Below are positions 1-10,119 of a stretch of DNA of 64,000 nucleotides, in pieces; the stretch's first letter is position 1; each line of letters begins with the position of its first letter. A model generated the notes under the pieces. It was not told the DNA's origin and searched no databases. It saw only the letters and a list, made by a program, of their open reading frames with translations. Position numbers and translations under genes: made by a program. Location of the stretch: assembly GCA_024274915.1 (NCBI GenBank), contig JAJSAC010000024.1, positions 5,234 to 69,233 on the forward strand, read 5' to 3'. This DNA is from Thermodesulfobacteriota bacterium (GTDB lineage Bacteria > Thermosulfidibacterota > Thermosulfidibacteria > Thermosulfidibacterales > B14-G1).

Positions 1-1517
1 CTAAGAATGACTTTGTCCATTGGTGGGAAAACTGGAGAGAAAAGGATACACCTCTCCCTGAAACCTTGAAGCCTTTCATAGATTGGTTTCTTCTTTTCCA
101 GGAAGGGGAGAGGATGAGGCTTTTTGAAGATCCTTCTTACAGGAAAAAAGTTAGGGTATTTCTTGAGGTGAGAGCTTTAATGATCCTTAAGAGAGAGGAA
201 GTTGATAAGAAGATAAAAGTAACTACGAGGGAGATTAAGAAAATATATAAAGAGAGATATGTTCCTCTCCTTCACGTCAGAGCCGTTGTGTTTCCGAAGG
301 AGAAGGAGGCAAGCGCTTTCCTTGAAAAAGCGAAGAAAGGGGAGAGCTTTGATGAATTAGTGAAGAGAACGTTTCCCAAAAACAATCGTAGAGCTTTTGA
401 CTGGGGATGGAGGAGACCCTTTGTGTTTCCCGCTTCCGTGAGGGAAAGTTTGATAAAGATGGAGGAAGGTAAGGTTATTGGTCCAGTGGAATGGATGGGA
501 AAATTTTGGCTTCTTGAACTTGTTGAGAAGAAGAAAGGTAGCGACAAAGACTTTAATAAGGTTAAAGGAAGGATAGAAGAAAAGTTGAGAAAAGAGCAGG
601 AGGGTAGGCTAACCTTAGCCCTTATTGAGAGATTGAAAAAGAAGTATCACGTATGGGTAGATTACAAGTTGTTAAAGTCCATCGACATTGATAATCCACA
701 AAAGGAGTATATGGATAAGCCCCTGTTGAGAATGGGGAAAGTTGAAATGAAGGTTAAGGATTTTTTGATACAAGTAAAAAGGGAGATAGACTTTAGAAAG
801 AAATATAAGTTTTCCATCAAGGACAAAGAAAAGATCAAAAGAATGGTGATGGGCAACCTCATATCCCAGACGTTAACGACATGGGAGGCTCTGAGTCGTC
901 ACTATGAGAGAAAACCTCCTTTTAAGTGGGTTTACCGCTTTTACTGTCAACATCGCATCATAAAGGAGCTGGAAAATCAACTCTTCTGGCCGAAGGTTAA
1001 GGTGTCCGAGGACGATGCTAAGAAATATTACCAGGAACACCTTTCTGAGTATAAGCTTCCCGGCCTGGTTAAAGTGGCAATTATCCAGACGGGGGATGAA
1101 AAACTCGTTGAGAAGTTGGAGAAGGCTCTCAACAGGGGAGAGGACTTCTTCGAGGTGGCCAAGAAGCTTACCTTTCATGGGGCCATCGTTCAGAGGGTTC
1201 CCGTGACTCACATGGCACCGGAGATGCAGAAGGTGGTATCTCGCCTTTCTCTAGGAGAGGTGAGTGCTCCCGTTAAAGTGGGAAAATACACATACATAGT
1301 GAAATTGATTGATAGGGTAGCAGAGAGACAGCGGCCTTTCGAAGAGGTGAAGAAGAGCATTTTGGACATCCTAAAAAAAGAGAGATTTGAAAAAGTTAAA
1401 GGGAGCTATTTGTCAGAACTGAGAAAGAGGTCTAAAATCGAAGTGAATGAGGCTGCCTGGCAAAGGGTAAGGGAAGAGTTGGGGAGGAAGGATGAAGCGG
1501 GTAAGAAGACTGGCTGA
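1..1517 (+). CDS. SurA/PpiC (parvulin)-type peptidyl-prolyl isomerase/chaperone, 5'-partial
   Basis: The track ORF is 66..1517, but the frame has no stop back to nt 3, so the true start lies upstream of the window. The protein is K/E-rich with parvulin-like segments (VKVAIIQTGDEKLVEKLEKALNRGEDFFEVAKK...GEVSAPVKVGKYTYIVKLID). It overlaps the next gene by 26 nt. Confidence 0.65.
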   Translation, partial: KNDFVHWWENWREKDTPLPETLKPFIDWFLLFQEGERMRLFEDPSYRKKVRVFLEVRALMILKREEVDKKIKVTTREIKKIYKERYVPLLHVRAVVFPKEKEASAFLEKAKKGESFDELVKRTFPKNNRRAFDWGWRRPFVFPASVRESLIKMEEGKVIGPVEWMGKFWLLELVEKKKGSDKDFNKVKGRIEEKLRKEQEGRLTLALIERLKKKYHVWVDYKLLKSIDIDNPQKEYMDKPLLRMGKVEMKVKDFLIQVKREIDFRKKYKFSIKDKEKIKRMVMGNLISQTLTTWEALSRHYERKPPFKWVYRFYCQHRIIKELENQLFWPKVKVSEDDAKKYYQEHLSEYKLPGLVKVAIIQTGDEKLVEKLEKALNRGEDFFEVAKKLTFHGAIVQRVPVTHMAPEMQKVVSRLSLGEVSAPVKVGKYTYIVKLIDRVAERQRPFEEVKKSILDILKKERFEKVKGSYLSELRKRSKIEVNEAAWQRVREELGRKDEAGKKTG

Positions 1518-8721: not shown

Positions 8722-10119
8722 ATGAAGGCTAAGGTGAAGATGATTGGGCGCTCTCTGGTTTATTTATTTGTGCTGGGGGTGGTGATGGGCTTATTTGTGG
8801 CACCCCTGGCCCTGGGCGAGGCCAGGATTTCCGTCTATCTCTCCCTCAAAAATCCTTCTGTCTCCCATGTGTGGTTCAGATGTAAGGAACTCTCCATTTC
8901 CCAGGATGGGAAGGAGTGGGTGACACTAAGGGACGATCCTGTGGGGGTGGATTCTTCTAAAGTTGCTAATGGGCAGGTACTTCTGGGCACTTTTACGGTT
9001 CCTTCCGGGACGTACAACAGTTTTAAGATCGCTTTGGAAAAAGCGGCCCTGAAAAAAGGTGGCAAACTTGTCCTCTTGTCTCTGGCCAGGAGGGAGCTCA
9101 CCATCCTCATCTTTCCCCCTTTAGACTTAAAAAGTGGCGACAGCACCTGCCTTTTCCTCCAGTGGGATGTTGAACGGTCGGTTGAGGAGGGATTCTCTTT
9201 TTCCCCTGTCATCTCCGCCAGGGTGCAGTCCATACCTTTGAGGGGGGAGTTGCTCTACGTCACCTGCGACGACATAGACACCCTCTACGTCGTTAGGGCG
9301 GACAAGAACTGGGTGGTGGGCTCCCTGGGTGTGGGGAGAGGGCCAAAGGGGCTTGAGTTGGACACTGAGCACAACAGGCTTTACGTGGTGGATTCGGGAA
9401 GTAGGGATATAAAGGTGGTGGAGCTGTCTACCAACAGGGTGGTGGACTCCATCATGCTACCTTTCGTTTTGGAGCCTACCTTCATAGAACTTTCACCCCA
9501 TGGGAGCGGGGCTTACGTGACAGATAGAAAGAGCAATTATCTTCTTAAAGTTAATCTTTCTTCTGGGATGGTGGAGAAGGAGACTGAGCTGGGCCATGGC
9601 CTTTACTATCCTCTCTATGTAGAAGACGAGGGTGTGTTGGCCGTCTCGTCACCATTGTCCCAGCTGGTGTATTTGGTCGATCCTGCTGACTTGAGGGTGA
9701 GGAGGGAGATAAGGGTGGGCTCTGCTCCTGAAGGGATTTTGGCTTACCAGGGTTACCTCTATGTGGCGGACAGAGGCTCCAACACGGTCTCGGTATACAG
9801 CTTTCGGGATGGAAGGATATTGGGCAGGGTTAACGTGGGATTTCAGCCCAGGCGTCTGGTGGGGAGTGGTAACAAAATCTATGTAAGTAACTATGGAGAG
9901 GGGACCCTCTCCCTCCTGTTGCCTGGCCGTCTAGTGGTTTTCAGGAAGATCACCGTTGGGGGGGCTCCTTTGGCCATGGCAGTGTGCGAAAGGCGCCGCT
10001 GGCTGTACGTTTTGGATAGAAAAGCCAAGAGGATCAAAGTCTTGGGACTAACCTCCGAGAGGCTGATGGCCACCATACCCCTGGGGGGCACCCCTTTTTC
10101 TGCCCGGGTTTTGCAGTGA
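8722..10119 (+). CDS. Secreted DUF4382-like N-domain + YVTN-family beta-propeller protein
   Basis: The ATG at 8722 has AGGAG at 8711-8715; the track start at 8674 is less likely. TM/signal segment LVYLFVLGVVMGLFVAPLALG. Repeats: LYVVDSGSRDIKVV, AYVTDRKSNYLLKV, LYVADRGSNTVSVY, IYVSNYGEGTLSLL, LYVLDRKAKRIKVL. Confidence 0.8.
   Translation: MKAKVKMIGRSLVYLFVLGVVMGLFVAPLALGEARISVYLSLKNPSVSHVWFRCKELSISQDGKEWVTLRDDPVGVDSSKVANGQVLLGTFTVPSGTYNSFKIALEKAALKKGGKLVLLSLARRELTILIFPPLDLKSGDSTCLFLQWDVERSVEEGFSFSPVISARVQSIPLRGELLYVTCDDIDTLYVVRADKNWVVGSLGVGRGPKGLELDTEHNRLYVVDSGSRDIKVVELSTNRVVDSIMLPFVLEPTFIELSPHGSGAYVTDRKSNYLLKVNLSSGMVEKETELGHGLYYPLYVEDEGVLAVSSPLSQLVYLVDPADLRVRREIRVGSAPEGILAYQGYLYVADRGSNTVSVYSFRDGRILGRVNVGFQPRRLVGSGNKIYVSNYGEGTLSLLLPGRLVVFRKITVGGAPLAMAVCERRRWLYVLDRKAKRIKVLGLTSERLMATIPLGGTPFSARVLQ

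Follow-up and report, generated by a model that had tools for sequence, protein, structure and literature searches.

The osc-type gene cluster that accompanies the cytochrome OmcS was reportedly presented by Shen et al. in 2025 as a machinery both "widespread" and "ancient" (Cell Chem Biol 32:239), the roles of its genes being taken here from the papers citing this work and from its abstract. In these citing papers, an eight-gene block, GSU2500-GSU2493, which stands together with the omcS-like gene GSU2501, is linked to the maturation and the secretion of OmcS nanowires (PMC12977616, PMC13194489, citing Shen et al. 2025). The Geobacter sulfurreducens locus (L082) comprises successively an NHL-like gene, OmcS, OmcT, OscB (1017 aa), the OmcS-like OscC, the YncE-type propeller OscD, OscE (725 aa), the LpoB/GNA1162-like lipoprotein OscF and OscG. 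On a Geobacter-type metagenome contig (L087), the region beyond OscG encodes a peptidyl-prolyl isomerase (PPIase), a 26-haem lipoprotein, a 16-haem cytochrome and an NHL protein. This kind of gene cluster is not discussed in Portela et al. (2024). A comparable locus is described here at positions 1-10119 of a 64,000-nucleotide stretch of chromosomal DNA of an uncultured Thermodesulfobacteriota bacterium (assembly GCA_024274915.1, contig JAJSAC010000024.1, positions 5,234 to 69,233), referred to below as the window. Judged by homology and gene order, this segment corresponds to the downstream two-thirds of an operon of the osc (omcS-companion) type. With a probability of about 0.72, this operon would make and wire an OmcS-like surface cytochrome for the exchange of electrons with extracellular solids or partner cells.

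Nine co-directional open reading frames (ORFs), all on the + strand, occupy the segment in the order PPIase, 26-haem cytochrome, 16-haem cytochrome, NHL protein, OmcS-like cytochrome, MntA, HepT, octahaem cytochrome and DUF4382/propeller protein. Apart from MntA and HepT, which are listed further below, they are the following:

3..1517 (+), ORF1: OscH-like PpiC-type peptidyl-prolyl isomerase/chaperone with a Rotamase_2 domain, its 5' end cut by the window edge
1492..3429 (+), ORF2: OscI-like 26-haem cytochrome c, probable lipoprotein, with 26 CxxCH motifs and a signal ending in LLYLGC
3429..4598 (+), ORF3: OscJ-like 16-haem periplasmic cytochrome c, with 16 CxxCH motifs, a start at the TAATG junction and a signal peptide
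4612..5499 (+), ORF4: OscK-like beta-propeller made of NHL repeats, with a signal peptide; start of the longest ORF at 4558
5503..6558 (+), ORF5: OmcS-family hexahaem cytochrome, very probably of the short "sister clade", 351 aa, with five CxxCH motifs and one Cx5CH
7361..8638 (+), ORF8: octahaem cytochrome c, a divergent OmcS-superfamily member, with eight CxxCH motifs
8722..10119 (+), ORF9: secreted OscD-like protein combining DUF4382 with a beta-propeller of the YVTN/YncE type; start of the longest ORF at 8674

Pfam and NCBIfam searches recognized a PPIC rotamase, Paired_CXXCH cytochromes, NHL repeats, an MntA-type nucleotidyltransferase with HepT, and DUF4382 with a YVTN/YncE-type propeller. 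The four cytochrome genes (ORF2, ORF3, ORF5 and ORF8) encode 26 + 16 + 5 + 8 = 55 canonical CxxCH motifs, and the figure of 56 given by the first-pass annotation is reached only when the Cx5CH site of ORF5 (CAGTSGCH) is counted as well. Only five CxxCH motifs were found in the six frames of the remaining 53.9 kb of the window. Export signals are carried by the eight products whose N-termini lie inside the window (ORF2-ORF9), all nine ORFs are intact, and every family-conserved haem motif is retained. The ORF coordinates agree with the gene order, the single strand and the tight coupling described in that annotation, including the overlap at 1492/1517, the TAATG junction at 3429, the 3-nt gap between the TAG codon at 5497-5499 and the ATG at 5503, and the overlap at 7361/7373. 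A scan for promoters and terminators returned counts at or below the shuffle expectation.

The window proteins, together with the neighbors of the Thermosulfurimonas homologs, were mapped by tblastn onto 80 fetched loci. A recurrent unit can be observed, formed by U1 (~570-640 aa), the LpoB/CsgG/GNA1162-like lipoprotein U2 (~190 aa), U3 (~495 aa), the lipoprotein U4 (~195 aa), PPIase, 26-haem cytochrome, 16-haem cytochrome, NHL protein and OmcS-like cytochrome, with the octahaem and then the DUF4382/propeller genes as an optional 3' end. At least 57 of the 80 loci, mostly from Thermodesulfobacteriota and Nitrospirota, share this gene order. The exact succession PPIase, 26-haem, 16-haem, NHL, OmcS-like is found in 41 of them, and the Geobacter-like order, in which the OmcS-like gene precedes U1-U2-U3-U4-PPIase, in 16, many of the other loci being cut by contig ends. 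The closest relative, a metagenome-assembled genome (L002), has proteins 69-86% identical to those of the window and the same downstream order, MntA included. The first-pass annotation had pointed to the recurrence, around omcS in Geobacter, of a PPIase together with very large cytochromes, propellers and OmcS-like cytochromes; this was upheld by the comparison of the protein sequences with L082 and L087, and the proposed check against the G. sulfurreducens omcS region and other genomes revealed an extensive collinearity with omcS-type loci. Of the eight block genes, five (H, I, J, K and D) lie in the window together with an OmcS-family gene, in a permuted order. This homology and this synteny support the reading of the locus as an extracellular electron-transfer or nanowire-assembly neighborhood, as the same annotation had suggested.

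The two large cytochromes correspond to OscI and OscJ. ORF2 (645 aa) is built of 12-13 paired-CXXCH units of the MtrA/DmsE type, with 12 matches to Paired_CXXCH_1 (E=2.6e-144) and 296 bits against the DmsE-family decahaem model TIGR03508. It is 38% identical, at 99% coverage, to the OscI homolog of L087 (E=3e-136), a protein that likewise has a lipobox and 26 motifs. The 61 ORF2 homologs examined all have a lipoprotein-type signal ending in Cys, and the number of their CxxCH motifs is invariably 26. In Geobacter, GSU2495 (oscI) encodes a protein of ~70 kDa with 26 haems (PMC12977616, PMC13194489). The best match of ORF2 among solved structures is the PDB chain 6r2q_A (E=4e-18). This chain is named "Cystathionine beta-synthase" in the PDB table, a name that looks wrong. 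We take 6R2Q to be the MtrCAB complex of Shewanella baltica, its chain A being MtrA (333 aa). The structure of GSU1996 holds 12 haems over 12 nm, and on this scale a chain of 26 haems could span roughly 20-25 nm. ORF3 matches Paired_CXXCH_1 eight times and resembles the 16-haem cytochrome of L087, an OscJ homolog with the same 16 motifs (E=3e-72); among 57 ORF3 homologs, 16 motifs are found in 46, 15 in ten and 14 in one.

ORF1 is a PPIase (Rotamase_2, E=3.6e-25). The ORF listing placed its start at nucleotide 66; frame 3 is open from nucleotide 3, and its translation (KNDFVHWWENWREKDTP...) aligns with residues ~40 onward of the Thermosulfurimonas (534 aa) and L002 (548 aa) homologs. About 43 N-terminal residues, with the signal anchor among them, lie outside the window. 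The PPIase ORF being open to nucleotide 3, the locus therefore continues upstream of the window. ORF1 is 69% identical to the PPIase of L002 and matches the PPIase located 3' of OscG in L087 with E=7e-13 over 92% coverage, at an identity of only 23%. Its GC content is low (0.43, and 0.51 at third codon positions, GC3), and the low total GC stems mostly from its richness in Lys and Glu. A second PpiD-like periplasmic chaperone (SurA_N and rotamase domains), Lys-rich like ORF1, is encoded at 15555-17411 (+), just past two tRNA genes.

What lies beyond this edge can be judged from the related loci. Directly upstream of the PPIase, L002 carries U1-U4, and U2-U3-U4-PPIase are contiguous in 49 of the 80 loci. 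In L002, U1 corresponds to OscE (E=1e-12) and U2 to OscF (E=4e-29), and U3 and U4 have partial matches to OscG. The OscE-like/U1 proteins of related loci, ~570-725 aa long, end in Phe, as does the G. sulfurreducens OscE (725 aa). A C-terminal Phe is usual for outer-membrane barrels. A family profile search with these barrel-like OscE homologs found no match to a porin family. The OscF/G-like proteins of the relatives have lipoboxes and LpoB/CsgG/GNA1162-like domains. A shared N-terminal motif of the "VAVLPF.N.T" type, within an LpoB/CsgG/TolB_N-like domain, can be observed in OscF, OscG, U2, U3 and U4 (L002 1714-4366, L082 19484-21233). The comparison suggests that OscF, OscG and U2-U4 belong to one family of lipoprotein paralogs resembling CsgG, a component of curli secretion. 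On the basis of these alignments, the three block genes OscE, OscF and OscG are expected to lie just beyond the left edge. The absence of a porin reported by the first-pass annotation is accurate for the window itself but, as a feature of the locus, is an artefact of its left edge, since L002, like about 50 other genomes, has a gene for a barrel-like OscE-like protein, with OscF- and OscG-like ones, directly upstream of the PPIase.

The two propeller proteins correspond to OscK and OscD. ORF4 (Pfam NHL, E=1.9e-12) matches the NHL gene found 3' of the 16-haem gene in L087 (E=1e-21) and, in L082, the NHL-like gene upstream of omcS (E=4e-12). In 41 of the 80 loci, an NHL gene of this type is the immediate upstream neighbor of the OmcS-like one. 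OscK is presumably this NHL gene, given its position in L087 and the annotation of GSU2493. ORF9 combines DUF4382 with YVTN repeats (TIGR02276, E=2.4e-24) and is 26% identical to the G. sulfurreducens OscD over 77% coverage (E=8e-20), both proteins having YncE-type propeller matches. Its propeller also matches that of a surface-layer protein, PDB 1l0q (E=5e-23). No haem motif was found in ORF9, unlike the Geobacter OscD, which has a CxxCH. An OscD-like gene is present in 35 of the 80 loci. In several of them (for example L001, 12370-13996), a pentahaem cytochrome of 352 aa and a membrane protein of 181 aa are encoded 3' of this gene, and neither was found in the window or in L002. This pair might constitute the inner-membrane entry point of the pathway.

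Two of the fetched loci (L003 and L053) present the complete bacterial-type cluster, with lipoprotein signals, on contigs binned as Asgard archaea (Heimdallarchaeota and Promethearchaeota metagenome-assembled genomes). Both contigs measure only 10-13 kb, and the name of one gives a coverage of 0.42. Mis-binning is probably the explanation, rather than archaeal carriage.

The OmcS-family cytochrome and its octahaem partner

The sole PDB match of ORF5 is OmcS (6EF8/6NEF), with a phmmer E-value of 5.8e-7 over residues 29-331 for 6EF8, and a profile built from 43 sequences of the ORF5 family matches 6EF8 over nearly the full length (E=9.5e-21). All six haem sites of ORF5 align with the six OmcS motifs. 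The haem-3 site, CAGTSGCH (C144-x5-C150-H151, hence Cx5CH), aligns with the OmcS haem-3 motif and is invariant in the 43 homologs, as are H38, CxxCHTMH and the remaining haem-motif residues. The haem-5 motif CLSCHRAH (C313xxC316H317) is conserved with OmcS. H38, the second His of CHTMHNS in the sequence CSNCHTMHNS, aligns with OmcS His16, reportedly the inter-subunit ligand of haem 5 (Wang et al. 2019). A His supplied by the neighboring subunit ligates a haem in both OmcS and OmcE (PMC9473688).

The ORF5 family is large, with more than 3649 homologs and at least 569 matches among species-representative genomes, the carriers being mainly Desulfobulbia, Thermodesulfobacteria, Desulfuromonadia and Nitrospirota. 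It takes in loci from Desulfurivibrio and the Desulfurivibrionaceae (L076, L058). In Desulfurivibrio alkaliphilus, the cytochrome DA_402, described as extracellular and OmcS-like, has been assigned to a "sister clade" of OmcS that is marked by CX2-5CH motifs. Growth on iron oxide induces it more than 100-fold, and oligomer modelling predicts that it forms a filament (Nature 2025, PMC12545173). To judge from these descriptions, ORF5 very probably belongs to the same clade.

The octahaem cytochrome encoded by ORF8, for which at least 1288 homologs were counted, lies 3' of the OmcS-like gene in 37 of the 80 loci. When compared with the OmcS-like (ORF5 family) profile by hhalign, it matches in the N-terminal region of haems 1-2 (95.8% probability, E=7e-9) and in a C-terminal region of three haems (93.7% probability, E=2e-7). 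Because these profile-profile matches are found at both ends of the protein, ORF8 is classed by its sequence within the OmcS superfamily, of which it is an expanded and divergent member. H59, in CAHCHEMH, is the equivalent of His16 and is nearly invariant in the family, and the N-terminal arm of the mature protein carries an invariant SAHG. A fold search found no relative of ORF8 among the solved structures. A closer kinship with OmcE was considered and rejected: a 16-sequence profile matched 7TFS with E=3e-5, but the signal peptide was included, and a larger profile of 59 sequences gave E ~0.15 with a different motif aligned, a similarity at the level of haem motifs only.

It may be speculated that ORF8 is a second polymerising cytochrome of the superfamily, which would form an eight-haem nanowire of its own or else co-polymerise with, cap or anchor the hexahaem filament. 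This proposal, which is doubtful, is consistent with the retention of H59, with the invariant His of SAHG and with the result of the fold search. ORF8-type genes are also present in six Desulfobulbia loci of the Geobacter order (L038, L048, L049, L059, L060 and L076), where they lie on the opposite strand, ~8-10 kb upstream of the OmcS-like gene, beside a shorter 16-haem-like cytochrome and sometimes an NHL-like gene. These genes could form a further small module tied to that cluster.

Proposed mechanism and competing explanations

In the mechanism proposed for this operon, the products would be exported by Sec and the cytochromes loaded with haem in the periplasm, and the OscH-like isomerase would act as a chaperone of the coil-rich OmcS-like subunits. 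These subunits would then be moved to the cell surface by an outer-membrane channel made of the OscE-like barrel and the CsgG/LpoB-like lipoproteins, whose genes would lie off the window. At the surface they would polymerise, or at least dock, with His38 ligating haem 5 (C313xxC316H317) of the neighboring subunit as His16 does in OmcS. The 26-haem lipoprotein, anchored in the outer membrane, and the 16-haem cytochrome would form a long periplasmic haem chain connecting the respiratory chain to the base of this structure, and the two propellers could serve as scaffolds or as controllers of its morphology. The net result would be an exchange of electrons with extracellular solids or partner cells.

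Several observations weigh against this proposal. ORF5 is no closer to OmcS than to GSU2501, with an identity of 25-28% to each, and among the Geobacter paralogs OmcS is the only proven polymer, OmcT, GSU2501 and OmcJ being without known function (PMC12977616). The AlphaFold2 model of ORF5, computed from the 43-sequence alignment, was poor (mean predicted local distance difference test, pLDDT, of 48; predicted template modelling score, pTM, of 0.48), and a Foldseek search of the PDB with this model found no fold match. No channel or porin gene was found in the window, the presence of OscE-G being deduced from the relatives. The physiological need for OmcS filaments is itself disputed (PMC11077965), and the deletion of related cytochrome genes in Desulfovibrio ferrophilus left the reduction of Fe(III) oxide unimpaired (PMC9769857).

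The main rival is a non-polymeric complex of the outer membrane and the cell surface, in which the MtrA-like 26-haem lipoprotein would thread the OscE-like barrel and feed monomeric OmcS-like and octahaem cytochromes, the NHL propellers stabilizing the assembly, mainly for the uptake of electrons from minerals or partner cells. The MtrA/DmsE-like character of ORF2 (6r2q_A, E=4e-18; TIGR03508, 296 bits) speaks for such a complex, as does the status of OmcS as the sole proven polymer (PMC12977616). Deng et al. proposed an arrangement of this type for the NHL clusters of D. ferrophilus, where "periplasmic" 12- and 14-haem cytochromes were obtained from the outer-membrane fraction (PMC5815863, PMC9769857). 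The His16 equivalent, the inter-subunit ligand, is nevertheless invariant in the ORF5 family and nearly so in that of ORF8. Moreover, the accessory genes are those linked to the maturation and secretion of Geobacter OmcS nanowires (PMC13194489), and the oligomer model of DA_402 predicts a filament (PMC12545173). A purely monomeric conduit is on balance unlikely, and the filament-oriented osc-type reading is preferred.

A periplasmic respiratory module devoted to the reduction of sulfur, polysulfide, thiosulfate or nitrite, with the large cytochromes as electron stores or reductases and nothing extracellular, is far less credible. The carriers are mostly sulfur-cycling Thermodesulfobacteriota and Nitrospirota, every component detected in the window could be periplasmic, and ORF2 and ORF3 also match the NrfH, NrfB and HmcA models, weakly, in part and far below the cut-offs. 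No catalytic respiratory subunit, CxxCK motif, molybdopterin partner or Fe-S partner was found in the locus, however, and the first-pass annotation had named homology to such modules, or a lack of synteny with omcS-type loci, as grounds for abandoning its interpretation; the synteny is extensive. ORF5 is in addition homologous to the extracellular OmcS, and the operons of the related loci include outer-membrane components, both barrel-like and CsgG/LpoB-like. The idea that the operon is decaying or silenced here, and no longer works as a unit, has the least to recommend it. The MntA/HepT genes do stand between the OmcS-like and octahaem genes in this lineage only (1/80 and 0/80 related loci), and the right edge shows an MFS fragment and a 1.4 kb indel. 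Yet the nine ORFs are intact, with their signal peptides and all family-conserved haem motifs, the toxin-antitoxin genes are tightly coupled to their neighbors with none of these disrupted, and L002 keeps the same order at 69-86% protein identity.

The most interesting loose end left by the osc-type reading is the conserved octahaem partner, ORF8.

Insertion and flanking regions

Three further features belong to the insertion and to the right boundary:

6569..6910 (+), ORF6: MntA-type nucleotidyltransferase antitoxin with a Polbeta domain; the longest ORF starts at 6524
6903..7373 (+), ORF7: HepT-like HEPN toxin (HepT-like_2)
10123..10722 (-), remnant of an MFS transporter gene, its C-terminal half (aligned with 217-347 of the 347 positions of MFS_1), a boundary marker outside the system

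ORF6 matches Pfam Polbeta (E=1.1e-6) and NCBIfam MntA_antitoxin (E=4e-7), with a GSx(n)DxD motif (GS...DVD) in the sequence GSLLDSRRWAEFSDVDV. ORF7 matches HepT-like_2 (E=4.2e-29), its RHFFRHAY sequence corresponding to Rx4HxY, and overlaps the antitoxin gene ORF6 by 8 nt and the octahaem gene ORF8 by 13 nt. The pair, at 6524-7373, is a type VII toxin-antitoxin system with intact catalytic motifs. MntA is present in one of the 80 related loci (L002, 63% identity) and HepT in none, L002 having ~100 nt where HepT would be; the insertion is therefore lineage-specific. It is a recent selfish insertion without a role in the cytochrome system.

At the right boundary, the decayed MFS gene noticed by the first-pass annotation is indeed a C-terminal fragment, but the acquisition or rearrangement of the locus that was read into it does not follow. 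This fragment and a + strand ORF of 270 aa with an SLT (lytic transglycosylase) domain fill 1.4 kb (10120-11535) that are absent from L002, where the OscD-like gene directly abuts a PAS/GAF/HD-GYP gene. Because the right neighbor is the same in L002, the edge reflects a local indel of 1.4 kb and not an acquisition of the locus. The composition profile suggested by that annotation gives no sign of a recent acquisition either: most locus genes have a GC3 of 0.60-0.69, against 0.57-0.73 for the flanks. A signal of horizontal transfer was considered and rejected, the only deviating genes being those of the PPIase (GC 0.43, GC3 0.51) and of the OmcS-like cytochrome (GC3 0.53).

The rest of the window is housekeeping chromosome. 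The cluster is adjoined by a gene for a CBS/PAS/GAF/HD-GYP signalling protein of the cyclic di-GMP (c-di-GMP) type at 11537-14290 (-), a neighbor conserved in L002, which could regulate the cluster. Another signalling protein of the c-di-GMP type, with GAF, HD-GYP, GGDEF and periplasmic-binding domains, is encoded at 35380-38427 (+). An intergenic stretch of lower GC (~0.48) at 14300-15550 contains two adjacent tRNA genes on the - strand (15267-15338 and 15352-15423) and the region's two best promoter-like matches. At 24875-28558 (-), a tyrosine recombinase of the XerC/D type (27680-28558) has a T2SSE-like ATPase fragment and an AAA protein nearby, and this stretch may be a small integrated element or contain a housekeeping xerC.

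Comparison with described systems

The MtrCAB and other porin-cytochrome systems share with this locus large cytochromes made of MtrA/DmsE-type units, here the 26- and 16-haem proteins, and the relatives of the window have a barrel-like outer-membrane protein in the operon. A porin of the MtrB/OmbB type and a decahaem cytochrome of the MtrC/OmcA type are absent here, and no match to the MtrC/OmcA families above the cut-off was found among the window proteins with Pfam and NCBIfam. The haem chain of ORF2 is also 2.6 times the length of that of MtrA and lipid-anchored, and the accessory lipoproteins are LpoB/CsgG-like.

In D. ferrophilus IS5, the clusters DFE_0448-0451 and DFE_0461-0465 place large multihaem cytochromes beside NHL propeller genes and predicted extracellular cytochromes (PMC5815863, PMC9769857), a likeness drawn from their description. 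Their order, cytochrome-cytochrome-NHL-cytochrome-cytochrome, parallels the succession 26-haem, 16-haem, NHL, OmcS-like and octahaem of the window, with haem counts of 12 and 14 in place of 26 and 16. Clusters with NHL propellers are induced in this organism under electron-donor starvation (PMC5815863), and homologs have been reported in Thermodesulfobacteria (PMC5815863, PMC9769857).

With regard to the filament subunit itself, ORF5 has in common with OmcS (6EF8/6NEF), at the level of sequence, the six aligned haem sites, CHTMHNS and CLSCHRAH. It differs from it by its size (351 aa against 434 aa, ~80 aa shorter), by an identity of 25-28% and by the Cx5CH motif at haem 3. For DA_402, a seventh motif is counted in the published report, in whose main text the terms "osc" and "NHL" do not occur (PMC12545173).

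The closest counterpart is the osc cluster of Geobacter (GSU2504-GSU2493). OscB, a 1017-aa spermine-synthase-like protein, is absent from the window, an octahaem paralog stands in place of OmcT and GSU2501, a toxin-antitoxin pair is inserted, and ORF9 is devoid of the CxxCH of the Geobacter OscD. In the relatives of the window, one further small lipoprotein, U4, is encoded after the OscG-like gene and before that of the PPIase. Here, OscK is followed by the OmcS-like and OscD-like genes, which in Geobacter precede OscE. Homologs of OscH, OscI, OscJ, OscK and OscD and an OmcS-family hexahaem cytochrome are nevertheless all present, with H-I-J-K in the same order. Across the 80 loci the conservation of parts of the system is rigid, with 26 motifs in 61 of 61 OscI-like proteins, 16 in most OscJ-like proteins, an invariant His16 equivalent and an invariant Cx5CH, and it spans Desulfuromonadia, Desulfobulbia, Thermodesulfobacteria and Nitrospirota despite the permuted gene order. 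This kind of cluster having been published in 2025, and the probable clade of ORF5 having been described in Desulfurivibrio, the locus is an ordinary further example that leaves current understanding unchanged. With it, the organisms endowed with the OmcS-type nanowire biogenesis machinery gain one more carrier, which is probably thermophilic and of the Thermodesulfobacteriota type.

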